A stretch of DNA of 64,000 nt. Source: Macrostomum lignano. Lineage: Eukaryota. A program made the translations under genes and the position numbers. Below are positions 1,452 through 43,932 of the stretch, one piece after another (position 1 is the stretch's first letter; each line of letters opens with the position of its first letter). The notes under the pieces are model-generated. The model was not told where the DNA came from. It worked only from the letters and a program-made list of their open reading frames with translations, and did no database searches. The stretch lies in assembly GCA_002269645.1 (NCBI GenBank), contig NIVC01000033.1:733335-797334 (forward strand). The letters run 5' to 3'.

Positions 1452-2075
1452 AGTAGAAGGCATGAGGGGGCTTTTGGGACAAAATTTTTCACATCCTCCA
1501 TAATCCCATTAAATCCATCTATATTATCCCTGACAGAATCAGAAAAAAGGGGGGTTGCACTCGCTCACAAAACGTCCTCCATAATCCCATTAAATCCATC
1601 CATATTATCCCTGACAGAATCAGAGCAAAACAGGTGTCCTACTGTAATGCTCTGAGGGTTTATGCTCTGAGCATAACAGCTCCAAATCCACCCATAGCAT
1701 CTTCGAAACAATCAGAAAATAATCTGCATTCTTCTCCCCACATTCAATCCGCAACGTGCTACCAGATCCCAAGGACTTTAAATCATCAGCGCAGGGTCCT
1801 TACCCTTTGAAAAAATCTAAATTTTCTCTAAAAATGTTTCCAGTTGTCTCTCCAGGTTCTTATTACAAAGCGCATGAGCCTAATTTCAAGAGCAAGTACC
1901 GATGCAAACTTGAATGCAGCGAGTACATGAGAAAATATTGGCCCGGCGTTGATATCAATGCCTCTAATATTAATCAAGCTCTCCAAAGACACTGGTTTCT
2001 TAAGTATGGAGTAACCTACGTAAAAGATTTTGACAGCTATTATAACTTTGCTGAAGTTATAAGGCAGTTGTAGTA
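1452..2075 (+). repeat. E1 left terminal inverted repeat (~620 bp) with ~80-bp subterminal tandem units
   Basis: Reverse complement of 16530-16969 plus 21296-21554; imperfect. Confidence 0.9.
1834..2073 (+). CDS. TIR-encoded ~79-aa orphan protein (copy 1)
   Basis: MFPVVSPGSYY...KCKLECSEYMRKYWP...; intact in all four TIR arms. Confidence 0.7.
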   Translation: MFPVVSPGSYYKAHEPNFKSKYRCKLECSEYMRKYWPGVDINASNINQALQRHWFLKYGVTYVKDFDSYYNFAEVIRQL

Positions 2076-2134
2076 GCCAACTACAAGGATGTACCTGGCG
2101 GCTTATATCGTAATTTTACAAGTCTGAAGACGAC

Positions 2135-2992
2135 TCACATTCTCTCAATAATAATTGTTAGCACAAACTCTTCCCCGTTAAAATCGACACCAACGCCATC
2201 CTCTGTTTCAAACTGCAGAATGATTTCATGTATCTCTCTATTACTCAGAATCACTCTTTTCACGGGGTTTGGCTTTTGCACAAGCATTTTGCCACCAGCA
2301 ACAGAGTTTGAAATGTTAAAAAGTATGTTGCTTCGTTTGCCCTTGAATATCCAATCATGGCTCAGATTGCTGCGAATTAATATATTCAAACCTTTGACAA
2401 TGTCAGCGATATTTGGCGCCAAGTACATACCGGATATTAGCCGGGACACAGCAACAGTGCCAGGCGCCTGCAGCGGGCTTTGGTCTGTGGCGCCACCATA
2501 AACTCTCTTTTCAAATCCCAACTCGCGATACCAAGTGTCATCTTTAAACTCTACCTCTGCGTCCTTATGAACTTGCAAGACAACTCTCATGACAGTTAGA
2601 TCATAAGTTAATCTAACAGGGAACAGTTTATTTTCTGGTTTGCTTTCATCCGGTATCTCAAAATGCTTTCGTTTAGTGAAGACGTTCTCCAAGAAGTAAT
2701 TATAAGTATCCACGCTCTGTGTGCTGACAGGAAATATCACAACCTCTGTTGTAGTACGCTTCCATTTGTAATAAAACTTGTTATTTTCCGCTGTCACATT
2801 GGGAACATTTGACCACCCAGTGAAATCATTGAGATAGACGTGGTAATTCGCCTCGGGATCCAAACGAAGTGGTTGCTCCAATTTTTGAATGAAGATTCCG
2901 TTTGACTCAGTAATGCGACCCGCTACAGTGATTGGAATGCTCTCCTTAGAGTGTGAAACAATGTTGTTCAGTCTTTCGGCTATGGCTTCCAT
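2135..2992 (-). CDS. Putative minor capsid (penton, single jelly-roll) protein
   Basis: Beta-rich 285 aa ORF directly downstream of the MCP; Polinton penton-like motifs (FTGWSNVPNV, NKFYY, LILRSNL...GK..NIL, IHEIILQF...VDFNGE); homolog in E2. Confidence 0.7.
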   Translation of the reverse strand: MEAIAERLNNIVSHSKESIPITVAGRITESNGIFIQKLEQPLRLDPEANYHVYLNDFTGWSNVPNVTAENNKFYYKWKRTTTEVVIFPVSTQSVDTYNYFLENVFTKRKHFEIPDESKPENKLFPVRLTYDLTVMRVVLQVHKDAEVEFKDDTWYRELGFEKRVYGGATDQSPLQAPGTVAVSRLISGMYLAPNIADIVKGLNILIRSNLSHDWIFKGKRSNILFNISNSVAGGKMLVQKPNPVKRVILSNREIHEIILQFETEDGVGVDFNGEEFVLTIIIERM

Positions 2993-3013
2993 TTTTTTAT
3001 TGAAAAAAATTAT

Positions 3014-4304
3014 TCAAACTTTACTAGACGAGTTATTGATCATATTGACCTTGATCTTCCTCTCAAATGCATAGATAATAAACAGATCAACAGCCGTTGC
3101 GGCACCAAATTCTTTCCGCTCGATATTAGTCACAATGTTAACAGGGCTATTGTCTGTAGGCATTTGTCTAGCAGTCACATCAACACCAAATATTGGATAT
3201 AGTTTTTTATACTGCAAGGTTGTCAAAACAATACCGTTATTCTCTTTGACAGCCAAGTCCGACAGTTCATTGTAAAACTTACTAATCTTGTTCTCCGAGA
3301 AATTCCCATTTTGTGGCAATGCAGGGTATAAATTGTCACTGATCTCATGCTGAATCGATCGAATGTTTCCATGTAGAAATCTACCTACATTAGTTGTATT
3401 CCTCATAGTGACAATAATGTACCTTGGATTGCTACAGGAGCCTTCTTTAATGCAAATATTGTGTCTTGCGTCATTCCGCTCATCTCTGCACATATAAGCT
3501 GTATAAGCAACATCAATGTCTTTCTCAATCGCCTTCAAGTATTCAGCTTTGAGTGCAGTCTTGGGCTCAATCTAAGTACAGCTCCACGCTAGTTAGCTTA
3601 ATCTCCATCGATGTATGATTGGCCCCCGACCAAATTCCTCTGTTCCGATCATCTCTAGTCAGTCTAAATGTGTAGCTAAAGTTGCTTGTCAACCGATTGA
3701 AACTATTACAGAAACCACTCATAAACCTCAAAGGTACAAAAATATCTACACACCTAAACAACGGATTCTTAGCAGCATCGTTCTCACCAGCAAGAGCATA
3801 GTTGTATCTCTCCTTTCTCTTTTTGTAACCAGGGTCATTCTCATCTCCTGTCTGTTCATTGGGGATGAATCCAGCACCGCTCCCCATCTGAATAAAATCC
3901 GGGTTCTCAATCAAGCACTGGGTATCATAGACCACACCAAAGTTTGCTATTCTTTCCAACTCTGTACTTCCATTGGACACATTAAACTCTTTGAACATAT
4001 AAGCCCAGAAATTACTGGTTAGTGCGACATCCGCATTGTGTAGATCATCATTAGCATGAGCGGCGTCTGCGCCTCCTTTAGTTTTGAATTGAAACGTCAT
4101 ATAGAAGCCGCTCCTTAGACTGTGGACACTGACCAAAGACGAACATCCATTGTATGTAAATGTCAGTGTTTGGCCAGGACCAAGATTAGTTTCATTCTGA
4201 TTTTCCTGACTGGGAACTCTTACCTGAGTCGCTTTGATTGTGCTATCATCACTCAAAATAGGCTTGTTAATTTTGTAGGGAACTGGTGTCAGTGGGTCGT
4301 TCAT
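3014..4304 (-). pseudogene. Putative major capsid protein (double jelly-roll), split by a 5-nt deletion near 3570
   Basis: The 245-aa and 174-aa ORFs are collinear with the intact 428-aa ORF of E2. E2 reads GAAGTCATTGAG where E1 reads GATTGAG. Size and position next to the ATPase and penton fit an MCP. Confidence 0.78.
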
Positions 4305-4334
4305 TTTTTAACTAAAAATAAAATAAAATAAGAA

Positions 4335-5552
4335 ATGAAGCGGAAAAGTACACAGCAGATATCTGAATTGGAGAAGCTAGCACAAGCAGAGAAACGAGTT
4401 ACCGGGCTAATAAATAAGGAGCAACAATCCTACAATGAGTTTGTCCAAGCAGCCACAGAGTTTCATAAACCCGGGTATGGAGAAGCTAAGAAAAATATTG
4501 ATCAGGTCAAAGAAACTATCGACGACATACAGGAAACCCAAGTGCAAAAGGTTTTGGGCAAAATTCCAGAAGCACCACAGATACAGCCGCAACCACAACA
4601 ACCACAACCACATCAATCACAACTAAAAGTGACAGATAACATTTTTGGACCAGTAGAGCGTGTCGAACATGATGGGAAATATGTATTTGGAATAAGTATG
4701 TGGAGAAGAAACATTTATAATGAACCAGTGGAATATTATATCGACATAAATAAGAAACATATTTCTGTTGTCAAAGGCTCGGAAACTAAGAGCATTCCTT
4801 TCACAGAAACCTTACTGACTTTTATGACCAAGAACCAAGAGAGAATCTCGGACAAACAGCTAAAGAACTATAGAGATCTAGTGACTTTTTCTCTTGCTAG
4901 AGATATAGCAATACTAAAGGCCCCAGAAGTCCTGAGACTTATGTATGATAACGGTGTCAACCTGACTAGATTCAAAAAGTACAATCACTTTAAACAATGG
5001 TTCGATTTGCCAGATCAGGGGGAAGTCATTGATCAGATGAAATATCTAGAACAACAGCAACAGCAACCACAACAACAACAACGACCGCCACAACAGCAGC
5101 AACATTTCACAGAAGAACAAGTACTCAGTCAACTGGAAAATGCAGATCCGACTCAAGTAGCTAAATATAAAAATGATCACCCAACAGACTGGCAACGCTT
5201 AGAACAACACTCTCCAGATCGAATGAACAGAATCAAGCAAAGAGTTTTCACACCTCAACAAAGACAGGCACCACATGACAGTTCCATCTCTGAAAGTGAG
5301 CAGTCTTTTGCATCACCTCCCCAGCAGCTACAAGCCCAACCAACTCCACAACCCCAAGACCAACCGCCCTCAACTGGAAAAGGAATTTCTGAAATCTACA
5401 AGCGAGTAGCGCTTCTTCTAGGAGCGGCAAAGACCGGAATGAAAGATGAAAATAGAAAAGAATTTGTCAACATCCTGGACAAAATGCTTGAGAGAAAATA
5501 CATCGATAAGAGGGCGAGAGAGCTTCTGCTTTCGCGGTTCAACAAAAAATAA
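4335..5552 (+). CDS. Gln/Pro-rich conserved Polinton protein
   Basis: 405 aa, homologous to E2 40286-41485; C-terminal GKG...KRxALLLGAAKTG...EFVNILDKML domain. Confidence 0.75.
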   Translation: MKRKSTQQISELEKLAQAEKRVTGLINKEQQSYNEFVQAATEFHKPGYGEAKKNIDQVKETIDDIQETQVQKVLGKIPEAPQIQPQPQQPQPHQSQLKVTDNIFGPVERVEHDGKYVFGISMWRRNIYNEPVEYYIDINKKHISVVKGSETKSIPFTETLLTFMTKNQERISDKQLKNYRDLVTFSLARDIAILKAPEVLRLMYDNGVNLTRFKKYNHFKQWFDLPDQGEVIDQMKYLEQQQQQPQQQQRPPQQQQHFTEEQVLSQLENADPTQVAKYKNDHPTDWQRLEQHSPDRMNRIKQRVFTPQQRQAPHDSSISESEQSFASPPQQLQAQPTPQPQDQPPSTGKGISEIYKRVALLLGAAKTGMKDENRKEFVNILDKMLERKYIDKRARELLLSRFNKK

Positions 5553-5568
5553 ATTATTTCAAGTAAAA

Positions 5569-5973
5569 ATGCCGATTATTTTTGAGAAAGACGTGGACAA
5601 ATACTATGACAAAGAGGAACTTAATCTCATTAAATGCGGATCTGGACTTTTCCCTGCAGGCCACTATCCAAGAAAAGAACGCTCTGGGAATGGCCTTGCT
5701 GATTTGATCGCTCAGGGGGCTAAGATTTTTAAGGTCATTGGAGAGAACAAAGAGAACATCAAGAACGTTGCCGAAGCGGCTGGCAGTGTAGCCACAGCAG
5801 CCAAAAAGATAAAGGATACTGTAAGTGTAACACCTAAACAAGAGATTCAACCTCCACTGGCCCCGCTGGCCCCGCTGGCTTCGCTGGCCCCAAATCCAGA
5901 CAGTGTGGACCCTGCAGTCTATGAGAAGATGAGAGCAAGCATTAAAAAAGGAAGTGGTTTCAAATTTGACTAA
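5569..5973 (+). CDS. Small putative virion core/membrane-active protein with GxG motifs
   Basis: Homologous to E2 39889-40269; GSG/GNG motifs followed by the amphipathic helix LADLIAQGAKIFKVIG. Confidence 0.65.
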   Translation: MPIIFEKDVDKYYDKEELNLIKCGSGLFPAGHYPRKERSGNGLADLIAQGAKIFKVIGENKENIKNVAEAAGSVATAAKKIKDTVSVTPKQEIQPPLAPLAPLASLAPNPDSVDPAVYEKMRASIKKGSGFKFD

Positions 5974-5998
5974 AGGTACTTTCCGAGGGTACAAGACT

Positions 5999-6168
5999 AG
6001 TCCCGAAATGACACATCTAAGTCCCAAAATGACACATTTAAGTTCCAAAATGACACATCTAAGTCCCAAAATGACACATCTAAGTCCCAAAATAACACAT
6101 CCAAGTCCCAAAATGACACATCTAAGTCCCAAAATGACACATCTAAGTCCCGAAATGACACATCTAAA
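5999..6168 (+). repeat. 21-bp tandem repeat (ATGACACATCTAAGTCCCAAA), ~8 copies
   Basis: Seen directly; intergenic, upstream of the ATPase. Confidence 0.95.
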
Positions 6169-6201
6169 TGATTTATTATTTAATTTTTTTTCATAGAAAA
6201 A

Positions 6202-7002
6202 ATGGACTTTTCAAACGACTTCAATCCTCACTGGACGCGTAATCAGATTAAGTTTTCTCATCACGAGTCAATTCCGAGTCATTTCAGATGCATTGTTGTT
6301 GGTTCATCAGGTTCAGGTAAAACATTCAGAGTCTTTAACATGCTTCTTAGACCTGGCTTTATCGACTATGACACTCTGCACATCTACTCTCCCACACTGT
6401 ATCAAGATGAGTATAAAATGCTGATTTCTGGATTGCAAAACAAACTGAACAAAGAGGACATTATTCAATGTTTTAATAACCAACAAATCCTTCCCAGCAA
6501 CCCAGAAATTGTAGCTGCTGAATATGCAAAGCACCTCAAAGACAATGAAAAATGGCAGAACATTAAAGTGTTCACCTATGGAGATCCACAGGCTGATCCA
6601 AAGACCAAACTTCTACCCCAACCAGATGAGCTAGAAAAGGGGAGAAAGCATTTGATCGTCTTTGATGATTGTATGACAGGCCCACAGAAGCAGATAGAAA
6701 ACTATTTTACAAGAGGGCGACATAACAATTGTAATGTAATTTACATTGCACAGAACTGGTTCGAGCTCCCGAACAAAACAATTCGTGGGAACTGCAATCT
6801 GATTCTCCTGTTTCCAACCATTCCACAGGACAGGTTAAAAAGATTTTACAATGAGGTCATTGCGCCTGCCTATTTCATAAATCCAACAAAAAACTCAAGC
6901 AGAAAGATTTCACAAGAGGAATTCGTTAATCTTTGCTATGACAAGTGGAATCAGCCTTACCAGTTTGTGATTATCAGCAAAGAAAAAAGAACTGTAATTT
7001 AA
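6202..7002 (+). CDS. A32/FtsK-like genome packaging ATPase
   Basis: Walker A GSSGSGKT, Walker B LIVFDD, and motif RGRH...VIYIAQ. Confidence 0.93.
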   Translation: MDFSNDFNPHWTRNQIKFSHHESIPSHFRCIVVGSSGSGKTFRVFNMLLRPGFIDYDTLHIYSPTLYQDEYKMLISGLQNKLNKEDIIQCFNNQQILPSNPEIVAAEYAKHLKDNEKWQNIKVFTYGDPQADPKTKLLPQPDELEKGRKHLIVFDDCMTGPQKQIENYFTRGRHNNCNVIYIAQNWFELPNKTIRGNCNLILLFPTIPQDRLKRFYNEVIAPAYFINPTKNSSRKISQEEFVNLCYDKWNQPYQFVIISKEKRTVI

Positions 7003-7018
7003 AATTTGCTATTAAAAG

Positions 7019-7759
7019 ATGTCAATAAACTTTGCAGGTGAATCCATTTCTGGCAACAGCGCTCTTACATCAGCTCAAATATCCATCCTTGACAGGCGAT
7101 ATATCAACAGCGACGAAGAGATCCCAGAGATCAAACTGAATAAAAACAGATTGAAACAATTAGAACGCTCCATGCACAAGCTACAGATAAACATAGAAGA
7201 TCTCCGCATAAAAGTAGCCAGGCAGAAGTTTGAAAGTGATAAGCTTTATGTACAGGTTGTACACGCAACTAATGAACTAAGGTCAGAAATAACTTCGATA
7301 GTCTCGCAAATCAACGGTTTAAGAACAAATTTAGCATCGACAATTAATCTTCTGAGAAACTCCATTGATAGGCGGATGCGCATTCTTGAAGGAGTTTTCA
7401 CAAACACAGCTAAAGTGAATAATTTAGAAGAGTTCATGAACCAGTCAACAGCGTTGCATGATAGAATTAAAGAAAACGTCGCAACCAACACAGGTAAAGT
7501 GAGGAATTTAGAAGAGTTCATGACTCAGTCAACAGCGTTGCATGATCAAATCAAAGTAAGAATTACTGCAAATAAAGTCTTTGTAGATTTAATTTTTACC
7601 GAATGGCAGAAATCGGTGAGAAGAATCGGTCGTCTTGAACGCTTGCATAATCTCAAAAACATTGACGCTGAAGAGGCACCACAGACCACAAGGGAAACAA
7701 GTGATCCAACCGACTTGTTTGAGATCATGCGTAGAATGGAGCTCACAGATAATGAATAG
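7019..7759 (+). CDS. Coiled-coil (fibre-like) protein with a 28-aa internal duplication
   Basis: Heptad-rich; TNTAKVNNLEEFMNQSTALHDRIKENVA repeated; homolog at 37975-38784. Confidence 0.7.
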   Translation: MSINFAGESISGNSALTSAQISILDRRYINSDEEIPEIKLNKNRLKQLERSMHKLQINIEDLRIKVARQKFESDKLYVQVVHATNELRSEITSIVSQINGLRTNLASTINLLRNSIDRRMRILEGVFTNTAKVNNLEEFMNQSTALHDRIKENVATNTGKVRNLEEFMTQSTALHDQIKVRITANKVFVDLIFTEWQKSVRRIGRLERLHNLKNIDAEEAPQTTRETSDPTDLFEIMRRMELTDNE

Positions 7760-7867
7760 GCAGATTCAGAGACCTGTTGCCGTCACTGCAGACGAAGCAA
7801 TCAACCGTAAAACAAATCTAACCACCACCAACTAGTTGCCGATTTTTTTTAAAAAATTCCCTAAAAA

Positions 7868-8524
7868 ATGGATGCTCAAAATTCTCTTTATGATCCGAAC
7901 GCTCCCACAACACCTAGTGCACCTAGTGCACCCCAATATGAGCAACAAAAACTCTACCCCGTCATTACTTGTAACTCTCAACAGTTTCGACTAGTGGAGA
8001 TTCAAAAAATGCGCGATGATCTTGAAAAAAATATTTTCCACAACACAAAGAAAATTAAGCGCTATGACAACCACTGTAAATTTTTCGACTACAGCAATAT
8101 GATTCTAGGATCTGTGTCTGTTCTATCTGGATCTGCTGCAGCTGTCTCAGTGTTGCCAGTCATCACAGCCCCAATCGCAATCCCACTCGGCTCTGTGGGT
8201 GCTGCATGTGGACTTATTTCAGCAATTACTGGAGCAGTAGCGCGAAACAGGCGAAAAAAACTAAAGCAGCTACAGGAGAAGCAAGTAAAAGAGAAAGGGG
8301 TGCACACATCAATCATAGGGTACATTTCAAGGGCAATCGAGGATAAGTTCATTTCAGAGGATGAGTTCAAAACCATTCAGGATCTTTATGAACAATCAAT
8401 TCGAATGAACTTGAACATGGTCGGTACTGATGACATGAGTCAGCTGAGAAATGAACTCGAGAAAGTTCTTCAACATTATGTGGAAAGAAGGACAACGAGA
8501 AGTACAACGAGAAATGCACAATGA
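7868..8524 (+). CDS. Putative membrane protein with PSAP/LYP motifs
   Basis: 218 aa; N-terminal PSAPSAP and LYPVI, coiled segment, long Ala/Gly-rich hydrophobic stretch, then ISRAIED..ISEDEF. Confidence 0.7.
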   Translation: MDAQNSLYDPNAPTTPSAPSAPQYEQQKLYPVITCNSQQFRLVEIQKMRDDLEKNIFHNTKKIKRYDNHCKFFDYSNMILGSVSVLSGSAAAVSVLPVITAPIAIPLGSVGAACGLISAITGAVARNRRKKLKQLQEKQVKEKGVHTSIIGYISRAIEDKFISEDEFKTIQDLYEQSIRMNLNMVGTDDMSQLRNELEKVLQHYVERRTTRSTTRNAQ

Positions 8525-8527
8525 ACC

Positions 8528-8989
8528 CTATGAAACACAGCCAAGAATAATTTCCTTGTAGGTCTTTCGTGTTTTGGTCATTGCATACAAAACAGTCATG
8601 CACAGCTCACCGCAAATATCACTGCTAAGACCTTGGAGAATAAAGTCTGAGCGATAAATTTTTTTATTATTTTTTCCCTTCATATAATTTCTTAGCTCTT
8701 CTGGTACTGCCGTCCCATAGCTATCGAAGTAATAACACTTGTGCTTGCGATCGGGATCAATCACCCAGCAAACCCAATGAGATCCTGGCTTATCGGTGCT
8801 GTCAAAGTTCATGATGCCGCATTCTTTTCTTAGAGGAAAATCAGGCAGAGTGTCCCTCATAAATATTCCTCTAAAGTTTGGGATTTCCAGTTCGTTAGCC
8901 AAATCTTCAAGAAAGTTATTTGTTGTCATTTTTATGTTATTTTTATGAGGTTTATTAAACTTTCTCTCAAACCTAAACCCAATATCCAC
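8528..8989 (-). CDS. Adenain-like (C5) cysteine protease
   Basis: GSHWV, YFDSYG, LQ...ICGELC give the His-Asp-Gln-Cys catalytic set. Confidence 0.92.
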   Translation of the reverse strand: MDIGFRFERKFNKPHKNNIKMTTNNFLEDLANELEIPNFRGIFMRDTLPDFPLRKECGIMNFDSTDKPGSHWVCWVIDPDRKHKCYYFDSYGTAVPEELRNYMKGKNNKKIYRSDFILQGLSSDICGELCMTVLYAMTKTRKTYKEIILGCVS

Positions 8990-8992
8990 CTC

Positions 8993-11900
8993 CTAAACCC
9001 AACCTCCTAAACCTAATCTCCAGTGCCCGAACGGTAGACTGTTGATATTGTCATCAAAAATGAATCTCTTGTTATCTGCACCTGACAGTCCAATCTTCTT
9101 TTGCTGAATTGTGTGAATAATATGGTTTTTAGATTGTAGCTTTGAGAACTCATGTGATGTCTTTTTGTTGCAATTCAAGGCGTCTCTGTATTCAGCTTCA
9201 TTAATTTCCTTCCTAACCACACGTTTCGGAATTCCCTTTGATTTTTTGATTGGGTCTGACGACTCACATTTTATAAAATAGGACTTTGCTCTCAACCCAA
9301 TGAATTCAGTGATTATGTCACCAGCAATCTCGTCCTTCATTTTCCCAATCACTTTCTTGTTAGTGGCGTCAAACACTTGATCACCATTCAGCGTCCTGCA
9401 AGATTCATCATACTCAGACAAGTCAAACAAATCTTTTTGCTGCAGCATGTCCTGATAAATGTCTTCTGTTTGAATGTCCATAATAAAACTGTCTGTGTCA
9501 GTGTACAAGAGTTTCATTTTATCCTTGTACTGCTGCTTCATGCCATAGAAGAACTGGTACATCAGACGTTTTGATTCGTCGAGAACAGTGACACCTGTAT
9601 AGATCGGCTTGCGCAGCGTCACCTTGGTTTTGTAAAATATGATCACACCTAAGTAGCTATTAAAGATATGGAGTTCTTTGAATGTTGGCTTTGACATATT
9701 TGCCTGAATAACAGCAGGCTCTGATGAGGTAACAAGTTTCAGGTTTGTTCTTTTCCGCTCATTCTCAAGAGTCTTGCCATAGACAGAGTTGTTGGCCAAC
9801 TTAAAGAGGTTCTTGTCAAAGTCGTTGGTTGCTTTGGTCCTAAACTGGGTGTTCTTATCAATGTAGGGTTTCATCCACGCTTCCTCTGTAAATGTAAGAG
9901 CCCTGTGAACTTTGGTGACCCTGCAACCAAGTGAGATAAAATATGAAGCAGTTTGTAATGGATTTTGTAACGTGTCTTGTTGTTTAGATTCTGTGTTAGT
10001 TTCTCTGTATGTTCTTTTTCTGTTCCTGACAGGTGCCAAGTTCCATTATTATCATTGGGAGTTTCGATTATTTTCGGGCACTTGATGTTCTCTGGGAAGG
10101 GTGGAAAGTCAGAGAAATAGTCGTGAAGCTCTGGTGGAATGTAAACATCAACCTCATAAATGGCAGCCAATGAAAAGTCCCGTTTGAATTCTGATGAGGG
10201 TAGCCATCGAAAATCTCTAACTGGAAGATCTTGACTCATCGCCCACCCGTAGAGATTATTAGCGTCCAAGTAAGTAATGTAGTTTGAGGGTGCTCCTTAT
10301 TGTAAGATTCAATGTAGGGATTGTTTGCTTTTGCATACCTGTTAACGCAAATTGAGATCCCCCTCGCTTTGACGATTCGACAAAATTGTACATGTCAATG
10401 TCTGTAAGAAGTTCAATGTACCAATCTGGATCTTGATCCCATTTCATTTTAAGCAAAGATTCCCAGCTAGTGGCAGGCAGAGACACATAATGTGCTGGAT
10501 CGAGGCCATATGCTGTGTACCAGGTATATCTGAAGGTTTCAAACACATCGGCCAGCAGAAACACATCTGTGTAGAGGTAAAGCAGGTGATACTGGAAGAA
10601 GTTTTGACAATTAAAGTAATTATAGACATGCTTCGCGTGCTCATAGTCTTTGTCAGAGATTCCAGAGTCTGTTAGCTTTGAAAAGAACTTTTCTGGTGGT
10701 AAACCTTCTTCAAATACGTGATACCCAGTAATATTTTCATAGGGGTAGAAGCCTTTCTTTCTTAAAAGTTTAAATGATTCATCACTGTTGTTAATTTTAC
10801 TTGCAAAATATCTTTGTATATGTACATTGTTCATCTTTTAGATTCTTGCTTAGTTCGTCTAGACTGGCAGCTAGAAATTGATATGAATCCTTCAGTCTTA
10901 TTTTACCTGTAATTGAATTATCCTGTTTAATATCAACACACTTAAACTTCTCCTTGTTCTCTGCGATGCAATCAAGGTGTATGTCTGGAATCATGCCGAT
11001 TTTTTCAACTATTAAATGCATGTCATAGTTCTTTGCGTTGTGACAAAATATCGTTAGATCATGAATGTTCGATTTTAGCTTTAGATTACAGGTGTTATGC
11101 GCTGCACCTCTAAATTTCCCAGTATAGTGGCAGTGGTCCCTAACGGTGGGGTTCTTAATATTAGTGCAAGTTAAATGTTTCCTGCAGATGTGGCAATGAG
11201 TTGCTGATAAGAAATTGCTTTCATCCTCCTCAGTCATCATTATTGGAACAGGTTGAAGGGTGCTAATTACTTTTTGCAACTCTAACATTCTGGCAATAAA
11301 CTGCTCCACACACTGCTCTCCAAAGAAATAATTATACTCAACAAGTCCTTTTGTATTAATAAAGGCATATGCTACTGAATTGGGGATATGTTTTTGAGTT
11401 GGAGTTTGTTTTTGAGTTTGAGTTTGTGTTTGAGTTTGTTTTTGTGTTTCCGGCATGATTGAGCATTCAAAATCAGCATATACAACAAATGGGAGCTTCT
11501 CCATCTTGTGATAGTTCTTAAACCGAAGATACTTCTCTTCAGCTGAAGGAAGAGAGCAGTTTGTTGGGTGATCCTCGCATGATAATTCATGCTCTGTTAG
11601 CTTTTTTAAACGCTCAGGTCCACTGTAATGCTTGAGGCACAAGCGGCAGATAGCAACAGCCTCGTGATGATTATTCAACTGTTTGTGAATGAGTCTTGAA
11701 AGATCTTTAATCCAAACATAGTGAGCCTCCTCTAGTAAATTACCAATCACTAGAAGATCCACTTCAGTCCGCCTTTTCCCCTCAGGATCTAAAACGTCTT
11801 TGCTACATCTGACCGGTTGAACTTTCTCAGTTTTTTCACTCCACTCAAAGACTGTGATTCTAATTTTGTTATTAAACACTTCTTCTAGCTTTGGGATCTG

Positions 11901-12919: not shown

Positions 12920-13003
12920 CCTGATAGAAAAGTTGAACTGTTTCTACATCCTATAAGTAGTGTTAGGTTTATGAAGCTGGATAAAGTGGGGTTTTAAACC
13001 TCA

Positions 13004-13450: not shown

Positions 13451-13466
13451 TTTTTATTTTAATATT

Positions 13467-14504: not shown

Positions 14505-14534
14505 TTATTTAAAAAGAAAATTTAAAATAAAATA

Positions 14535-16520: not shown

Positions 16521-16532
16521 CCTTTCAGTTTT

Positions 16533-18219: not shown

Positions 18220-18291
18220 CTCGATCATAGCGCGAATTTTATTCCTCCTGTTTTATCCTCTGATCTCAATCTGGCCCAGTGGCAGGCGGAG

Positions 18292-36047: not shown

Positions 36048-36290
36048 ATGTTTCCAGTTGTCTCTCCAGGTTCCTATTATACTCAGCCTCATCCATTGTA
36101 CAAATCCAAGTACCAATGCAAACTTGAATGCAGCGAATACATGAGAAAATATTGGCCTGGCGTTGATATCAATGTCCCTAATATTAATCTAGCTCTCCAA
36201 AGACACTGGTTTCATAAGTATGGAGTAACCTATGTAAAAGATTACGACAGCTACTATAACTTTGCAGAAATCATTAAGCAATTGCGTTAA
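36048..36290 (+). CDS. TIR-encoded 80-aa orphan protein (copy 3)
   Basis: Homolog of 1834-2073. Confidence 0.7.
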   Translation: MFPVVSPGSYYTQPHPLYKSKYQCKLECSEYMRKYWPGVDINVPNINLALQRHWFHKYGVTYVKDYDSYYNFAEIIKQLR

Positions 36291-36423
36291 AAAACCGAAA
36301 GGCCAAAAAGCCAAAAGGCCAAAAGGCCAAAAGGCCAAAACCCTTTTCATTTTGGCCTTGCGCGAGGCCGAAATCGTTTGCATTCTGGCCTTCCCTCGAG
36401 ACGGAATTCTTCCTCGGCTGGGC

Positions 36424-36939
36424 TCAGTTAAAGTGAAAATCTCTCTCCCCCACGCGCGCTCTCTCTACCCCCATATCTTTCAAGAGCCTTCCCAATTCAT
36501 TGTTAGGAGCGCACAAAATAAACCCTGCTCCCGAGCACACCGTGCACCCGCCCTCTCTCCCCAAACACCCACCCTCAGCGCCCATTCCTAATCCCAACTT
36601 TGCCTTACTAAAAATAACAGCTTTAACTAGCTTCCGAGCGATCGATTCCTTCCACCCGCTTGAAGCCCCTATATTGTCTAGTCTCCTAAGCATTTCTTTG
36701 TCCCAGCGATTCTTCTCCTCAGGAAAATCTCTATATTTAACGTCATGCCACATGCAGACAGAGTCTAGCTCGTTCACAGGCTCGTGCCCAGGATTTGGAT
36801 TATTGTTTTTATCTAACTGTATTTCAAGTGGATTCAAAGGCCCGCAATATTTATAGCCGGGAAGTGTCCAGCCTTTGTTTGGATGAGGAAGCTTTTCTAT
36901 CAGTCCATGTGAATCTATTTTACCACCAGAGCGCTGCAT
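36424..36939 (-). CDS. Parvovirus-like PLA2 domain protein
   Basis: PGYKYCGP, HDVKY; C-terminus altered by the deletion junction. Confidence 0.85.
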   Translation of the reverse strand: MQRSGGKIDSHGLIEKLPHPNKGWTLPGYKYCGPLNPLEIQLDKNNNPNPGHEPVNELDSVCMWHDVKYRDFPEEKNRWDKEMLRRLDNIGASSGWKESIARKLVKAVIFSKAKLGLGMGAEGGCLGREGGCTVCSGAGFILCAPNNELGRLLKDMGVERARVGERDFHFN

Positions 36940-36969
36940 TATTTTATTTTAAATTTTCTTTTTAAATAA

Positions 36970-37929
36970 ATGACAGATCAGAAACTTAAAAAACTCTACT
37001 ACAGCGACAAAGGATTCTTTGTAGGCAAAAATGCCGTTAGTAAACTCATGGAGCTGAGTAAGGAACCAAAAGCTACAGTAGAAAAATGGCTCTCTAAGCA
37101 GGCTGTCTTTCAAGTCTATTTCCCACCAGTAAAATTTGAAAGGCCCCATTTCAGTATTTATAAACCTAATGAGGCGCACTAAGCAGATCTTCTGTTTCTC
37201 CCCAATGACTCGGGCTACAAGTATGCTCTCACAGTAATAGACATTGCTTCCAGATATAAGGAAGCTCGCCCACTCAAGACGAAGAAGTCAGAGGTTGTTG
37301 CCAGCGCACTGCAAGATATTTATAAAAACTCTCCGCTCACACACCCCCAAACCCTTATGACCGACCCGGGTAAGGAATTCATGGGTGCAGTGAAATCCCT
37401 TATGGAAAAGAAAAACACAGAGATTCGCTATGGCAGAACAAACTTGCACAGAGACCAGGCTTTTGTGGAAAGATTCAATCTAACTCTAGCCAAGAGGCTA
37501 TTCACTAAGCAGACAGCTGAAGAGCTGAAACTAAAAAGTGGTCAGTACTATTCAAAATGGACAGACCGCCTCCCCACTGTTATAGAACAACTGAACAATG
37601 AAGTCACGCGCATGACTGGATTGAAACCATCCCATGCAATTAAACAAGACACTGTCGAACTTAAGTCATCTCATAGAACAGACAACAACACGACAACCCC
37701 ACACAACACACACAACACAAAACACACCTTGAACTACCCTAAGCTTCCAGGAGTTGAATCACCATATATACTGACAAACTCTGAGTTTCTACGCTTTTTA
37801 TATCTACCTGGAGAGCTAGAGAAGGACACCAAAAGAAGAGCTACAGATCCATACTTCAGCCTTGATGTACATAAAATAGACAGACATTTTACCTCCGACT
37901 CCGAAAAAATTATAAAACTATCCGGTTGA
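36970..37929 (+). pseudogene. c-integrase with CAA>TAA nonsense (37180-37182) and 3' truncation at ~37902
   Basis: Nearly identical to the E1 integrase until FTSDS. Confidence 0.92.
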
Positions 37930-37974
37930 AAGATCTGTTTTCTTTTTGATAATTCCATCTGCACCGCCGGTTGT

Positions 37975-38784
37975 CTAGGCGGCTCTCGTGACGCCGGAGG
38001 ATCGCGAGTCCAGCAGGCAGCGGCTGGGCGGCTGACGTTTGAGAGCGTGCCGGATTACTCCGGCGGGGTCCAGAGCTCCTTCTACTCGATCTGTAGACAT
38101 GACCGGACGAGCAGTAGATTCTGCTTCATCAATAGCAATATCACGAAGATTGAGTGTTCTCTCCAGACGATTAAGCCTCCTTATTATTTTACCCCAAGAG
38201 CTATACATTCCGTTTAGATAGCTCCTGTGTGATACATCGTTTCTCTCTAATGCATCAAGTCTTTCTTTAATTCTATCATGCAACGCTGTTGACTGGTTCA
38301 TGAACTCTTCTAAATTATTGACTTTAACTGTGTTGGTTGCGACGTTTTCTTTAATTCTATCATGCAATGCTGTTGACTGGTTCATGAACTCTTCTAAATT
38401 ATTCACTTTAGCTGTGTTTGTGAAAACTCCTCCTTCAAGAATACGCATCCGTCTATCAATGGAATTTCCCAGAAGATTAACTGATGATCTCAAGCCGTTG
38501 ATTAGCGAGACTATCGAAGTTATTTCTGACCTTAGTTCATTAGTTGCGTTTAACAACGGCACATAAAGCTTATCACTTTCAAACTTCTGCCTAGCTACTT
38601 TAAGCCTGAGATCTTCCATGTTTATTTGCAACTGGTGCATGGAGCGCTCTAATTGTTTCAGTCTGTTTTTATTCAGTTTGATCTCTGGGATCTCTTCATC
38701 AGTGTTAATGTAGCGCTTATCAAGGAAGGAAGTTGTGAGAGTGCTGTTGCCTGTAGTTGACTCACCTGCAAAATTTACTGACAT
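37975..38784 (-). CDS. Coiled-coil (fibre-like) protein
   Basis: Homolog of 7019-7759 with a divergent C-terminus. Confidence 0.7.
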   Translation of the reverse strand: MSVNFAGESTTGNSTLTTSFLDKRYINTDEEIPEIKLNKNRLKQLERSMHQLQINMEDLRLKVARQKFESDKLYVPLLNATNELRSEITSIVSLINGLRSSVNLLGNSIDRRMRILEGGVFTNTAKVNNLEEFMNQSTALHDRIKENVATNTVKVNNLEEFMNQSTALHDRIKERLDALERNDVSHRSYLNGMYSSWGKIIRRLNRLERTLNLRDIAIDEAESTARPVMSTDRVEGALDPAGVIRHALKRQPPSRCLLDSRSSGVTRAA

Positions 38785-38800
38785 TTTTTTAAATAAAAAA

Positions 38801-39601
38801 TTAAAGTAAAATTCTTTTCTCCTTATTAATCATGACAAACTGATAGGGTTGGTTCCACTTTTCATAGCATATGTTAACAAATTCCTCCTGTGATATTGTT
38901 CTGTTAGAGTTCTTAGCTGGATATGTAATGTGAGCTGGGGCAATGACCTCATTATAAAATCGTTTCAGTCGATCCTGTGGTATGGTTTGGAAAAGGAGAA
39001 TCAAATTACAGTTACCTCTAATTGTTTTATTTGGCAGTTCAAACCAGTTTTGGGCAATGTAAATAACATTGCAGTTATTGTGTCTACCCCGGGTGAAATA
39101 ATTTTCTATCTGTTTCTGGGGACCGGTCATGCAGTCATCAAAGACAATCAGGTGCTTTCTCCCCTTTTCTAGTTCATCAGGTTGAGGTAAGAGTTTAGTT
39201 TTAGGATCTATCTGTGGATCTCCATAAGTGAAAACTTTAATGTTTTGCCATTTTTCATTGTTTGGGATGTGCTTTGCGTATTCAGTGGCTACAACTTCCG
39301 GGTTGCTGTTGAGGTCTTTTTGATGTCTAAAACATTGAATAATATCTTCCTTGTTGAGTTTGTTCTGTAGGCCCGCTACTAGCATTTTATACTCATCTTG
39401 ATACAGAGTGGGTGAATAGATATGTAGTGTGTCACAATCGAGGAATCCAGGTCTGAGGAGCATGTTAAAAACTCTGAAGGTTTTCCCTGACCCAGATGAG
39501 CCAACAACAATGCATCGGAAGTGCCTTGGAATTATCTCGTTGTGAGCAAATTTTATCTGATTGCGTGTCCAGTGGGGATGAAAGTCGTTTGTGAAGTCCA
39601 T
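38801..39601 (-). CDS. A32/FtsK-like packaging ATPase, intact
   Basis: GSSGSGKT, LIVFDD, RGRH. Confidence 0.93.
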   Translation of the reverse strand: MDFTNDFHPHWTRNQIKFAHNEIIPRHFRCIVVGSSGSGKTFRVFNMLLRPGFLDCDTLHIYSPTLYQDEYKMLVAGLQNKLNKEDIIQCFRHQKDLNSNPEVVATEYAKHIPNNEKWQNIKVFTYGDPQIDPKTKLLPQPDELEKGRKHLIVFDDCMTGPQKQIENYFTRGRHNNCNVIYIAQNWFELPNKTIRGNCNLILLFQTIPQDRLKRFYNEVIAPAHITYPAKNSNRTISQEEFVNICYEKWNQPYQFVMINKEKRILL

Positions 39602-39639
39602 TTTTTTATGTAAAAAACTTTTTCTTTTTAAACTTGTGT

Positions 39640-39826
39640 ATTTAAGACGCGTGTGTCTTCTTTGCGGGATGTGTATGTGTGTGTCTCTTTACGGGATGTG
39701 TGTGTCTTTTTTCGGGTTGTGTGTCTCTTTGCGGGATGTGTATGTGTGTGTCTCTTTACGGGATGTGTGTGTCTTTTTTCGGGTTGTGTGTGTCTTTTTT
39801 TTCGGGTTGTGTGTGTCTTTTTTTGA
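39640..39826 (-). repeat. ~21-bp degenerate tandem repeat
   Basis: CCCGAAAAAAGACACACACA(T/A)-type units at the position equivalent to 5999-6168. Confidence 0.85.
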
Positions 39827-39888
39827 CTAGTCCTACATCCGACTAGTCCTACACCCTCACACCTCTTTTATCGTCAGGGTGCACCAAA

Positions 39889-40269
39889 TTAGTCAAATTT
39901 AAAACCGCCTCCTTTCTTATATTCAGCTCTCATCTTTGCGTAGATGGCTGGATCGACACTATCTGCACTCGGTGCAAGGGGTTGAATATCTGGTATTGAT
40001 TTCCGGGTTTCATTAACCGTATCTTTAATCTTCTTGGCTGCTGTGACTACACTGCCAGCCGCTTTGGCAACGTTCTTGATGTTCTCTTTGTTCTCTCCAA
40101 TGACCTTAAAAATCTTGGCCCCCTGAGCGATCAAATCGGCAAGACCGTTCCCTGAGCGTTCTTTTCTTGGATAGTGGCCTGCAGGGAATAGTCCAGATCC
40201 GCGTTTAATGAGATTAAGTTCCTCTTTGTCGTAGTATTTGTCAATGTCTTTTTCAAAAAGAATTGGCAT
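39889..40269 (-). CDS. Small putative core protein with GxG motifs
   Basis: Homolog of 5569-5973. Confidence 0.65.
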   Translation of the reverse strand: MPILFEKDIDKYYDKEELNLIKRGSGLFPAGHYPRKERSGNGLADLIAQGAKIFKVIGENKENIKNVAKAAGSVVTAAKKIKDTVNETRKSIPDIQPLAPSADSVDPAIYAKMRAEYKKGGGFKFD

Positions 40270-40285
40270 CTTTTTAAATAGAAAT

Positions 40286-41485
40286 TTATTTTTTGTTAAA
40301 CCGTGAAAGCAAAAGTTCTCTTGCTCTTTTATCGATATATTTTCTCTCAAGCATTTTGTCCAGGATGTTGACAAATTCTTTTCTATTCTCGTCTTTCATT
40401 CCGGTCTTTGCCGCTCCTAGAAGAACAGCTAACCGCTTGTAGAATTCAGGCATGCCTTTTCCGGAAGAGCTAGGCGGTGATTCGAATGATTGGTCAGAGT
40501 AGGAACTGTCATGTGGCGCTTGTCTTTGTTGAGGTGTGAATACTCTGTCATTGATTCGCTTCATTCGTTCTGGGGAGAACTGTTCTAATTGTCGCCAAGT
40601 ATCAGGGTTTGTATCTTTGTACTGGGAAATCTCATTTGGCCCTGCTTTTTCAAGCGCTTCTAGTACTTGTTCGGGTGTGATTTGTTGCTGTGGCGGTGGA
40701 GGTTGTTGTGGTTGTGTTTGTGTTTGTGGTTGCTGCTGTTGTGGTTGCTGTGGTTGTTGTGGTTGCTGCTGCTGTGGTTGTGGTTGTTGTCTTATGACCT
40801 CTTCTTGATCCGGCAAACCAAACCATTGTTGAAAGTATTTGTATTTTTTAAACCTGTTCAAGACAATCCCGTTTTCATGTAAAATTTTCAAAACACCGTC
40901 GTTCTTGAGCATATCTATATCCCTCTCTAAAGCGAAGGTAACAAGATCTTTGTAATTTTCAAACTGCTTTTTAGACGTTTTCTCTAGATTTTTAGTCATG
41001 TAGTCGAGTAAACTTTGAGTGAAGGGGATTCGTTTAGTTTCTGCGCCTTTATTGATTAAAATATTTTCCTTTGTCACTTCAATGTTGTAATCCGCCGGTT
41101 CCCCGGTAATATTTTTTCGCCAGGCGCTAATTCCAAAAATATATTTTCCATCATCCAATACGGGGCCAAAAAAGTTATCCGTCACTTTCATCTGCACCGG
41201 TTGTGCTTCTGGTTGTCCTGGTTGCTGAGCCTGTGGTTGTCCCGGTGAAGATGGGATTTTACCCAATGTGTTTTGCAACTGGCTCTCTTGAATATCATCA
41301 ACTGCTTCCTTCACAGTGTCGATGTTTTTCTTCGCTTCTGTGTATCCAGGTTTGTGAAACTCTGTGGCTGCTTGGACAAACTCATTGTAGGATTGTTGCT
41401 CCTTATTTATTAGCCCGGTAACTCGTTTCTCTGCTTGTGCTAGCTTCTCCAATTCAGATATCTGCTGTGTACTTTTTCGCTTCAT
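40286..41485 (-). CDS. Gln-rich conserved Polinton protein
   Basis: Homolog of 4335-5552. Confidence 0.75.
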   Translation of the reverse strand: MKRKSTQQISELEKLAQAEKRVTGLINKEQQSYNEFVQAATEFHKPGYTEAKKNIDTVKEAVDDIQESQLQNTLGKIPSSPGQPQAQQPGQPEAQPVQMKVTDNFFGPVLDDGKYIFGISAWRKNITGEPADYNIEVTKENILINKGAETKRIPFTQSLLDYMTKNLEKTSKKQFENYKDLVTFALERDIDMLKNDGVLKILHENGIVLNRFKKYKYFQQWFGLPDQEEVIRQQPQPQQQQPQQPQQPQQQQPQTQTQPQQPPPPQQQITPEQVLEALEKAGPNEISQYKDTNPDTWRQLEQFSPERMKRINDRVFTPQQRQAPHDSSYSDQSFESPPSSSGKGMPEFYKRLAVLLGAAKTGMKDENRKEFVNILDKMLERKYIDKRARELLLSRFNKK

Positions 41486-41515
41486 TTCTTATTTTATTTT
41501 ATTTTTAGTTAAAAA

Positions 41516-42802
41516 ATGAACGACCCACTGGCACCAGTTTTCTACAAAATTAACAAGCCTATTTTAAGTGATGATAGCACAATCAAAGCGACTCAGGTAA
41601 GAGTTCCCAGTCAGGAAAATCAGAATGAAACTAATCTTGGTCCAGGTCAAACACTGACATTCACTTACAATGGATGTTCGTCTCTGGTTAGTGTGCACAG
41701 TCTTAAGAGCGGCTTCCATATGACATTTCAATTCAAGACAAAAGGTGGTGCGGATGCGGCTCGTGCTAACGTTGACAAGCATGATGCGGATGTGGCTCTG
41801 ATCAGTAACTTTTGGGCGTACATGTTCAAGGAGTTTAGTGTATCGAATGGGAGCACTGAGTTGGAGCGAATCGCCAACTTTGGAATTGTCTATGACGCTC
41901 ATTGTTTGATCGAGAATCCTGATTTTATTCAGTTGGGAAGTGGTGCGGGTTTTATTGCAGATGAAAAAGAAGGAGACATCAATGACAGTGGCTATAAAAA
42001 GAGGAAGAAGAGATACAACTATGCATTGCAAGGTGCTGATGATGCTGCTAAGAACCCGCTGTATCGGTCTGTTGATGTATTTGTACCATTGAGATTCATG
42101 AGTGGATTCTGTAATACATTTAATCGACTGACTAGTAACTTTAGCTACACCTTTAAGATGACTAGAGATGATCGCAGTAGAGTGTTGTGGACTGGGGCGG
42201 ACCACACAAGGATGGAGGTGAAGCTAACCGGAATCGAGCTGTATTTGGAAGTCATTGAGCCAAAGACTGCACTAAAAGCGGATTATCTTAAGGCAATAGA
42301 GAAGGACATTGATGTTGCATACACAGCCCACATGTGTCGAGATGAGCGAAACGAAACTAGAACAAATATCTGCATTAAAGAGGGATCATGCAGCAATCCA
42401 AGGTATATTATTATTAACATGAGAAACCCAAATAGCATTATACGCTACATGCATGGAGATGTGCGGTCCATTCAGCGTGAAATCAGTGATAATCTTTACC
42501 CTGCACTGCCACAAAATGGAGATTTCAGTCAGAACAAGATTAGCAAATTTTACAGCGAGTTGGTTGACTTGGCTGTGAAAGAGAACAATGGAATTGCTAT
42601 CACTGCTCTTCAATATGGAACGCTATATCCAATGTTTGGCGCTGATGTGTCTGCCAGACAAATGCCTACTGATAACAGCCCTGTGAATATCGTGACTAAC
42701 ATTGAGAGGACTACCGCAACACCTGTGGACCTGTACATTATCTATGCATTTGAGAGGAAGGTGAAGCTTAACATGATCAACAATTTATCCAGTAAAGTTT
42801 AA
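41516..42802 (+). CDS. Putative major capsid protein (double jelly-roll), intact 428 aa
   Basis: Size, beta-rich composition, ELERIANFG motif and synteny with ATPase and penton; the fold is inferred, not computed. Confidence 0.8.
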   Translation: MNDPLAPVFYKINKPILSDDSTIKATQVRVPSQENQNETNLGPGQTLTFTYNGCSSLVSVHSLKSGFHMTFQFKTKGGADAARANVDKHDADVALISNFWAYMFKEFSVSNGSTELERIANFGIVYDAHCLIENPDFIQLGSGAGFIADEKEGDINDSGYKKRKKRYNYALQGADDAAKNPLYRSVDVFVPLRFMSGFCNTFNRLTSNFSYTFKMTRDDRSRVLWTGADHTRMEVKLTGIELYLEVIEPKTALKADYLKAIEKDIDVAYTAHMCRDERNETRTNICIKEGSCSNPRYIIINMRNPNSIIRYMHGDVRSIQREISDNLYPALPQNGDFSQNKISKFYSELVDLAVKENNGIAITALQYGTLYPMFGADVSARQMPTDNSPVNIVTNIERTTATPVDLYIIYAFERKVKLNMINNLSSKV

Positions 42803-42815
42803 ATATTTTTTTTAT

Positions 42816-43688
42816 GTGAAAAAAATGGAAGCGATTGCTGAAAGACTAAACAACATTGTTTCACACTCTAAGGAGAGCATTCCTATTACAATAACTGGGC
42901 GAATTAATGACTCAAACGGGATGTTTGTTGAAAAATTAGAGCAGGCGATTCGCCTGGATCCAGGCGCTAATTACCATGTCTATCTTAACGACTTCACTGG
43001 TTGGTCAAACGTTCCCAATGTGATGGCAGCAAATAATAAGTTTTATTACAAATGGAAAGGTGCAGCAGCAGACCCTGTGGTATTCCATGTGAGCACGCAG
43101 AGTGTGGATACCTACAATAACTTTCTAGAAAATGTCTTTACTAAGAGAGGCCATTTTGAGACACCTGATGCGAGTAAGCCAGATAAAAAAATGTTCCCTG
43201 TCAAACTAACATATGATCTCACTGTAATGAGAGTGGTCATGCAAGTTCACAAAGATGCGGAGGTTGAGTTTAAAGATGACACTTGGTATAGGGAACTGGG
43301 ATTCGAGAAGAAAGTTTATAAGGCAGAATCCGCGGCGCGGACCGCCACTCAAGCATCGGGGACTGTTAGAATGGTCCGGGAAAGTGTAAGCGGTTTGTTC
43401 TTAGCACCCAATATAGCAGACATTGTAAAGGGTTTGAATATTCTAATCAGAAGCAATCTCAGTCTTGATTGGGTATTTAAGGGAAAGCGAACGAATATTT
43501 TGTACAACATCTCCAACTCTGTTGCTGGAGAACAGATGGTGGTAGAGAAACCAAATCCAGTGAAAAGAGTTGTATTGAGTAATAAGGAGATTCACGAGAT
43601 TGAGCTACAGTTTGAGACTGAAGATGGGATGGGCGTTGATTTCAACGGTGAAGAGTTTGTATTGACGTTAATCATTGAGAGAATGTAA
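42816..43688 (+). CDS. Putative minor capsid protein, intact
   Basis: Homolog of 2135-2992. Confidence 0.7.
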   Translation: MKKMEAIAERLNNIVSHSKESIPITITGRINDSNGMFVEKLEQAIRLDPGANYHVYLNDFTGWSNVPNVMAANNKFYYKWKGAAADPVVFHVSTQSVDTYNNFLENVFTKRGHFETPDASKPDKKMFPVKLTYDLTVMRVVMQVHKDAEVEFKDDTWYRELGFEKKVYKAESAARTATQASGTVRMVRESVSGLFLAPNIADIVKGLNILIRSNLSLDWVFKGKRTNILYNISNSVAGEQMVVEKPNPVKRVVLSNKEIHEIELQFETEDGMGVDFNGEEFVLTLIIERM

Positions 43689-43692
43689 GAAA

Positions 43693-43932
43693 TCACAATT
43701 GCCTAATTATTTCTGCAAAGTTATAATAGCTGTCGTAATCTTTTACGTAGGTTACTCCATACTTATAAAACCAGTGTCTTTGGAGAGCTAGATTAATATT
43801 AGAGACATTGATATCAACGCCGGGCCAATATTTTCTCATGTACTCACTGCATTCAAGTTTGCATCGGTACTTGGATTTGTACAATGGATTAGGCTGAGTA
43901 TAATAAGAACCTGGAGAGACAGCTGGAAACAT
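43693..43932 (-). CDS. TIR-encoded 79-aa orphan protein (copy 4)
   Basis: Homolog of 1834-2073. Confidence 0.7.
   Translation of the reverse strand: MFPAVSPGSYYTQPNPLYKSKYRCKLECSEYMRKYWPGVDINVSNINLALQRHWFYKYGVTYVKDYDSYYNFAEIIRQL

Follow-up and report, generated by a model that had tools for sequence, protein, structure and literature searches.

A small gene in both terminal inverted repeats of two Macrostomum lignano Polintons: signs of selection, end-copying and a possible RNase T2 origin

The window analysed here, a stretch of 64,000 nucleotides of Macrostomum lignano DNA (assembly GCA_002269645.1, contig NIVC01000033.1, positions 733,335 to 797,334 of the forward strand), contains two Polintons, E1 and E2, and in each of them both terminal inverted repeats (TIRs) carry a short open reading frame (ORF). 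We tentatively read this TIR ORF as a small selected gene present in both TIRs, likely copied from end to end and possibly a dead fragment of an RNase T2. On the side of the minor capsid gene (mCP) it encodes 79 amino acids, at 1834..2073 on the plus strand in E1 (copy E1L) and at 43693..43932 on the minus strand in E2 (E2R); on the PLA2 side it encodes 80, at 16533..16775 on the minus strand in E1 (E1R) and at 36048..36290 on the plus strand in E2 (E2L). As a preliminary description of this DNA had noted, all four frames face inward from the element ends, are free of internal stops and indels, and combine invariant peptide blocks with synonymous changes. The copies are 82–92% identical as protein and 86–95% as DNA. 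Similarity between the arms stops within the last codons of the ORF, the stop codon being the inner border of the TIR; in E2R the ORF and mCP are convergent, and only 4 bp separate their stops.

The TIR ORF is probably a real protein-coding gene, as judged from the way its copies differ. Pairwise dN/dS among the four copies, a check named in the preliminary description, is 0.20–0.56 and not near 1, with 0.20 and 0.23 for the two arms of the same element and 0.16–0.43 for codons 21–79 only. Fisher's test gives P values of 0.001–0.16, and a neutral-mutation simulation of the excess of silent codons gives 0.010–0.18; each is below 0.05 in 4 of the 6 pairs, which are not independent of one another in either test. 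This last range is on a level with the dN/dS of the integrase part (0.22) and of PLA2 (0.24) and exceeds that of the ATPase, mCP and major capsid protein (MCP), 0.03–0.10. Third positions account for 20 of the 42 variable columns of the ORF. Since substitution rates are alike upstream and within the ORF, this signal is a bias toward silent sites and not a low overall divergence. The four-arm alignment contains seven indel events in 183 upstream columns vs none in 237 ORF columns (P ~0.003). AAA directly precedes the start codon of all four TIR ORFs and that of 11 among 18 further listed genes; over all ATGs the figure is 43/548 in E1 and 18/306 in E2. Together, dN/dS, the indel contrast and the start context support the earlier view that this Polinton has a genuine terminal gene, present twice and under selection.

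Variation in four public runs from the same organism shows a similar distribution: one of the 40 listed variant sites falls in the 243-bp ORF vs nine in the 198 bp upstream, the single ORF variant is the silent third base of codon 37, and none of the 12 listed indels lies inside the ORF (157 more sites and 5 more indels exist beyond those listed). In three runs with a guessed RNA label, contigs cover all 30 bins, non-coding TIR DNA included; because the non-coding DNA is covered too and the label is a guess, this coverage does not demonstrate transcription. A contig from run X14 crosses the ORF end at 36295 and continues into 245 letters unlike this stretch, which suggests another kind of neighbour for the TIR ORF in other copies. 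Two observations call for caution. If frames broke as often as the core genes do, four 240-bp frames would be expected to stay intact by chance (P ~0.68), and dN/dS of the TIR ORF between elements (0.38–0.56) is higher than that of the core genes (0.03–0.31), largely because of one divergent block in codons 11–20.

The second copy of the gene probably arose when one genome end was copied onto the other, with later exchange between the arms, as a relic on the PLA2 side of E1 suggests. There, 70 bp on the plus strand (16115..16184) correspond to the 3′ end of the minor capsid gene, with 67/70 bases identical to E2 43623–43692 vs 55/70 to the end of E1's own mCP, and the relic ends at the very base that in E2R is next to the stop of the ORF. 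A block with 33-bp repeats (16185..16532), partly common to E2 36291–36460, separates the relic from the stop of E1R; this PLA2-side insert leaves the TIR ORF untouched. Long hairpins are predicted directly 3′ of the PLA2-side ORF stops, at 16370–16532 (−80.8 kcal/mol) and 36291–36430 (−45.0 kcal/mol), the energies being given without a shuffle control. Both segments consist of GGCC-rich repeats, possibly a 3′ end signal or a recombination substrate.

The informative sites of the four arms fall into blocks with different pairings. Upstream of the ORF, E1L pairs with E2L at 6 of 8 sites; in codons 1–20, pairing is by element at all 14 sites; in codons 21–80, it is by interior side at 4 of 5. 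The 27 sites include 21 adjacent pairs with the same label, a clustering matched by 0 of 20000 permutations, where neighbouring sites are not independent events. On this pattern, the block-mosaic structure of the arms reflects recombination or conversion that took place repeatedly inside the TIR. In adenoviruses, genome ends are repaired through panhandles. It has been proposed that the TIRs of the two ends anneal while the protein-primed polymerase pPolB replicates the element (10.64898/2026.07.28.741278), and the block-mosaic recombination fits this model.

The gene probably has its home next to mCP. As the element is replicated by protein priming, opposing TIRs would anneal and a copy of one end would replace the other; in the case of E1, the minor-capsid-side end of an E2-like donor would have been copied, overshooting the gene by 70 bp, and the block 16185–16532 would have entered later next to the stop codon. 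Both copies would be kept open by purifying selection together with ongoing exchange, from arm to arm and from one element lineage to another. The two copies would then be a by-product and not a dosage need, since end-copying and arm recombination would already account for them. Some weight must nevertheless be left to the use of both copies, for which the within-element dN/dS values and the TIR border at the stop codon leave room.

The product of the TIR ORF is basic (pI 8.7–9.1) and contains 15–17 aromatic residues. Its highest hydropathy over 19 residues is −0.23 to 0.07, so that on a hydropathy check alone it has no hydrophobic segment or signal peptide. AlphaFold places helices at residues 21–35, 43–58 and 67–78 with low confidence (pLDDT 54); structure prediction, recommended earlier, provided a three-helix outline but not a confident fold match. 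Fold searches with this model and with the T2-seeded model described below gave no Z of at least 5 and no Foldseek E of 0.001 or lower (best Z 4.3 and 3.8), and rows for calponin-homology and peptidoglycan-binding-like folds at Z 2–4 were taken as common helical arrangements.

The earlier remark that the protein belongs to no recognised family holds for Pfam, PHROGs, NCBIfam and PDB sequences, PHROGs offering a single member at E 0.2 and no family match. No homologue was found by a word search of 5.8 billion proteins of 44–140 amino acids, and phmmer against 1.84 billion representatives returned two matches, both artefacts of summed repeats. Viral contigs searched with the TIR ORF and with MCP contained no true homologue of the former; among plasmids and phages the best E was ~9–10; a motif scan of viral contigs found at least 120 loci, none of them related among the matches listed. 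Rfam gave no match over the left arm of E2, and five peptide words of the TIR ORF gave none in the part of the PMC8502044 supplement that was covered. A single match among 221 candidates from metagenome contigs was rejected as spurious, being antisense to a bacterial ABC-transporter gene.

A lead to the origin of the protein, missed in the preliminary description, comes from other comparisons: residues 27–72 may derive from the segment of RNase T2 that consists of a helix, the second conserved active-site segment (CAS II) and a further helix, a derivation that we regard as plausible without holding it to be probable. In a feature search of the ESM Atlas, the RNase T2 family PF00445 was present in 24 of 30 matches for one copy (top 0.91) and in 27 of 30 for a second (top 0.93, with 177–180 shared features). 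A combined T2 profile was built from 11 bacterial and 40 giant-virus proteins (the latter from 80, after removal of near-duplicates), with the TIR ORF left out. It ranked the four copies 1–4 among the 788 six-frame segments of the window. Their scores were reached by 3, 2, 8 and 22 of 20000 shuffles, reversed sequences scored near zero, and P per comparison was 1.7e-5 to 2.1e-4. The alignment is collinear, running from M-x-K-Y-W-P-[DG]-V through H-x-x-x-K-[YH]-G to a Tyr/Phe-containing helix, and the three predicted helices flank and overlie the T2-like motif.

Several observations weigh against this derivation. The Atlas recognition value, 1616, lies below the guide value of 2300 and the score is weak evidence; the two query sequences were near-identical, and the T2 hypothesis was itself picked after the Atlas result. 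Scaled to 24,736 families, the profile scores correspond to E 0.42–5.2, which is about what the best of some 25,000 families would give by chance, and a profile made from viral proteins only placed two unrelated window segments among the four copies. Pfam hmmscan did not report PF00445 for any copy. The probabilities given by hhalign with unbiased templates were 0.5%, 4.9%, 12% and 38%; a value of 68% obtained with a motif-selected T2 subset was discarded as circular. The T2-seeded AlphaFold model reached pLDDT 59 with no gain in confidence for residues 1–26, and no RNase T2 chain appeared among the listed structure matches, those of the seeded model included. RNase T2 has an alpha+beta fold with a central beta-sheet, and the low-confidence models are all-helical; a T2 fragment deprived of the sheet may fold differently from T2. 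Finally, no intermediate homologue linking the TIR ORF and RNase T2 was found.

Whatever its origin, the protein lacks the equipment of the enzyme, the residue roles being taken from PMC7399046 and PMC4136927. The catalytic His of CAS I is absent, as in two alignments the ORF starts one column after the CAS I His-Gly, and upstream of it the copies differ by indels and share no open frame. Within CAS II, the columns of the first His, the Lys and the Gly are kept, and those of the Glu, the second His and the Cys are occupied by Trp54, Tyr58 and Thr61. The N-terminal strands and the C-terminal half of T2 are absent as well. Without the His of CAS I and without the Glu and second His of CAS II, the product cannot work as a T2 nuclease, and the TIR ORF does not pass for an RNase T2 family member; what is claimed is that it is derived from one.

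If it is, the product would bind nucleic acid without catalysis. Its position and start context suggest an accessory protein that a promoter inside the TIR would drive and that would act in trans. A doubtful proposal is that this basic, aromatic-rich and unsecreted product would serve, early in infection, as a decoy that binds RNA or as a factor that interacts with the host, directed for instance against host RNA sensing or silencing. Still less likely is the fuller version, in which an animal Polinton would have captured the CAS II half of an RNase T2, with catalysis and secretion lost, and kept it at the inner border of both TIRs as an 80-residue pseudo-nuclease, expressed first, that shields viral RNA or blocks RNA silencing in the host.

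Among other explanations, the one that survives best is a two-copy, end-copied accessory gene unrelated to RNase T2, encoding a lineage-restricted three-helix protein that would act in trans, either regulating early events or interacting with the host. We consider this possible, short of probable. The coding evidence is the same for it as for a T2-derived gene, no true homologue was found among the 1.84 billion representatives or by word search, and on the scale of a whole library the score for T2 is borderline; against it, language-model features and the profile HMM agree both on RNase T2 and on the segment, and a control family treated in the same way failed.

The preliminary description saw in the gene a cis-linked or dose-critical role, and in this form the product would be an end-binding protein acting on the TIR subrepeats or on the displaced single strand, with two copies required. 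Such a role is improbable. In its favour, purifying selection acts on both arms of each element (dN/dS 0.20 and 0.23), the stop codon marks the TIR border, the PLA2-side insert spares the ORF, the product is basic and rich in aromatic residues, and the arms contain subrepeats of ~84 bp that might be bound. Frequent exchange between arms, however, yields the same signal of selection with no need for dosage, a diffusible protein would not have to be encoded in cis, and no DNA-binding family was detected. The retention of the gene in E2, offered earlier as a sign of such a role, loses its force: E2 is a derivative by internal deletion, lacking blocks of ~6.0 kb and ~1.3 kb of the E1 interior and having an integrase broken by an in-frame stop at 37180–37182, and as anything within a TIR survives internal deletion, its retention is uninformative. 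In E2, which the preliminary description called minimal, mCP, MCP, ATPase, PLA2 and other genes are still kept.

Even less probable is that the frame is no gene at all, merely a passenger kept open by homogenisation of the TIRs or by constraint at the DNA level. The chance expectation for its intactness, the two of six pairs that are non-significant in the neutral simulation, the lack of homologues and an antisense frame nearly free of stops (0, 0, 1 and 1 in the four copies) all speak for a passenger. Against this stand the share of third positions among the variable columns, the 0 vs 7 indel events, a start context like that of the core genes, and substitution rates that, being similar upstream and in the ORF, leave a bias toward silent sites.

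The weakest candidate is a degenerate HMG-box protein that would bend terminal DNA for replication or integration: the A box of HMGB1 offers 7/27 ungapped identities by eye, three predicted helices in a similar order and a Foldseek match at E 6.6, but with a profile of 34 giant-virus HMG boxes (mostly B-type, A-type not being fully covered) the four copies score −0.9 to 0.1 bits and rank 46–118 of 788 segments, 1160–1979 of 5000 shuffles equal their scores and hhalign gives 0.3%, so that this reading, no better than shuffles and very improbable, was rejected and served as a control for pattern matches made by eye.

The elements that carry the gene were identified by their termini and gene content. 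Both are decayed. E1 (1452..21554) contains a putative mCP, a split MCP, ATPase, adenain protease, pPolB in four pieces, pX, rve integrase, PLA2 and a RING ORF; E2 (35590..44258) retains PLA2, the truncated integrase, ATPase, MCP and a putative mCP and has no pPolB or protease. Both elements have AGTAG...CTACT termini and TIRs flanked by 6-bp target-site duplications, within the 5–8 bp of Polintons, identical in E1 (AGGCTG at 1446–1451 and 21555–21560) and agreeing in 5 of 6 bases in E2 (CAGAGA at 35584–35589, TAGAGA at 44259–44264). The E1 left arm (1452..2071, plus strand) comprises two ~84-bp subrepeats, the upstream region and the ORF. The right TIR of E1 (minus strand) is divided into an inner part (16538..16969) with the ORF and ~195 bp upstream of it and an outer part (21295..21554) with three subrepeats and the terminus. 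In E2, the left arm (35590..36284, plus) has three subrepeats and the right arm (43694..44258, minus) has one.

Pfam matches above cut-off comprise the A32 ATPase (PF04665), adenain (PF00770), pX, PLA2 and the rve integrase (PF00665, E 4e-9 in E1). Two matches lie below cut-off: pPolB of E1 (PF03175, E 4.5e-4) and the double jelly-roll (DJR) MCP (PF21738, E 1e-4), whose relatives at 70–77% identity all carry PF21738. E1 combines an rve integrase and a protein-primed PolB with a DJR MCP, a packaging ATPase and an adenain protease, and the gene set of the two elements is that of animal Polintons or adintoviruses (PMC8502044, PMC8097293). Interior identity between E1 and E2 is uneven, at ~76% in the capsid block, 81% in the ATPase block and 93% from integrase to PLA2, which points to module exchange between lineages. 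The N-terminal piece of pPolB (10797–12566, minus strand) weakly resembles endonuclease VII (E 2e-4, below cut-off); together with the weak PF03175 match this would fit a divergent 'Beta' class of PolB. The pX-like (13004–13450) and PLA2-like (14535–15035) domains are separate ORFs that flank the integrase. A RING-finger ORF at 15582–15899 on the plus strand (PF13445, E 1e-9; PF00097, E 3e-9) lies in the accessory region of E1, continues from the ORF 15336–15581, has no ATG of its own in frame and is absent from E2; it is possibly a viral E3 ligase.

The two parts of the right TIR of E1 are separated by a retrotransposon of Ngaro type (DIRS order) at approximately 16970..21294 on the plus strand, with SAP, reverse transcriptase (RT) and tyrosine-recombinase ORFs, which cuts the upstream region of E1R from the terminus and leaves this copy ~4.8 kb from the end of E1. 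Its split direct repeats, A at 16970–17129 and 20998–21156 and B at 20935–20997 and 21230–21292, show with the RT and the tyrosine recombinase the layout A1-ORFs-B1 A2 B2 by which Ngaro elements are defined (PMC8547959); Ngaro elements nested in virus-like elements are known from Cafeteria virophages (PMC8547959). Related SAP and RT pieces occur at ~61011–63900. In the surrounding host DNA, a remnant resembling a long terminal repeat retrotransposon (50324–52714, minus strand) has an rve integrase with an H2C2 zinc domain and a DUF7041 ORF. This DNA around the elements also contains several minisatellite arrays and a (CTA)n tract, at 1–182, 21823–23081, 25418–26213, 28530–29051, 33061–33558, 34350–34805 and 56956–57256.

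Genes within inverted terminal repeats are present in two copies in poxviruses generally. Accessory genes in the terminal repeats of poxviruses, which are exchange hotspots, are hence present twice, as is the TIR ORF here; poxviruses, though, have giant hairpin-ended genomes with TIRs of several kb, in contrast to a single 80-codon gene in the ~600-bp TIR of an integrating, protein-primed element. Among the genes recorded in poxvirus terminal repeats are the TIR helicases of entomopoxviruses (PMC11296320). Animal Polintons, Mavericks and adintoviruses (PMC8502044, PMC8097293) resemble E1 and E2: they share the 6-bp target duplication, termini that start with AGT, a repertoire of rve integrase, pPolB, A32 ATPase, adenain, DJR capsid, PLA2 and pX and, close to the ends, accessory ORFs, and the TIRs of 560–700 bp measured here lie within the vertebrate range of 46–1447 bp. 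Unlike them, E1 and E2 have an intact gene in both TIRs that sets the inner border, and in E1 PLA2 and pX are separate, not fused into PLA2X as in adintoviruses (PMC8502044). A gene present in duplicate in the two TIRs of a Polinton was not found described in the available portions of the open-access literature, most subscription papers and Repbase lying outside this scope; the same holds for the portions of PMC10748475, PMC8097293, PMC11131425 and 10.64898/2026.10.13.758929 that were covered. As for RNase T2 in Polintons, one review in the open-access literature contains both terms, T2 does not occur in the 20 listed of 246 further literature matches, and the Polinton texts checked, as far as they were available, contain no mention of RNase or ribonuclease.

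RNase T2 (PF00445) includes cellular, giant-virus and bracovirus proteins and Erns of pestiviruses, and bracoviruses and pestiviruses employ their T2 proteins to counter the immunity of the host (PMC7399046, PMC4136927). Variants with a His-to-Tyr change in CAS II exist among T2 proteins (PMC4136927). Compared with this family, residues 27–72 of the TIR ORF match weakly and collinearly at the W-P, H, K and G columns, yet the ORF differs in its length, 80 amino acids vs 108–274 in the viral T2 proteins compared, and in being without a signal peptide, the CAS I His, the CAS II Glu and second His, the Cys that follows, and the C-terminal half. Its likeness to the HMG box (PF00505, HMGB1 A box) is confined to the three-helix prediction and to the spacing seen by eye, with a profile score no better than that of shuffles. 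As a separate observation, giant-virus contigs proved to be rich in RNase T2: 135 of 142 pattern matches were confirmed and 80 were kept, and these proteins form a long class of ~210–270 amino acids and a short class of ~110–180.

Very little has been characterised of the accessory genes of Polintons and of the mechanisms by which they interact with their hosts, and TIRs are as a rule regarded as non-coding; the locus described here is a selected gene, probably protein-coding, inside a TIR. The 70-bp relic and the mosaic arms are a likely footprint of end copying and exchange, which bears on the model of replication through TIR annealing. If the RNase T2 lead is true, the product would represent a viral pseudo-enzyme in miniature, of a family turned on host immunity by other viruses, and a new kind of Polinton accessory protein; with 80 residues, it should be easy to express and assay.

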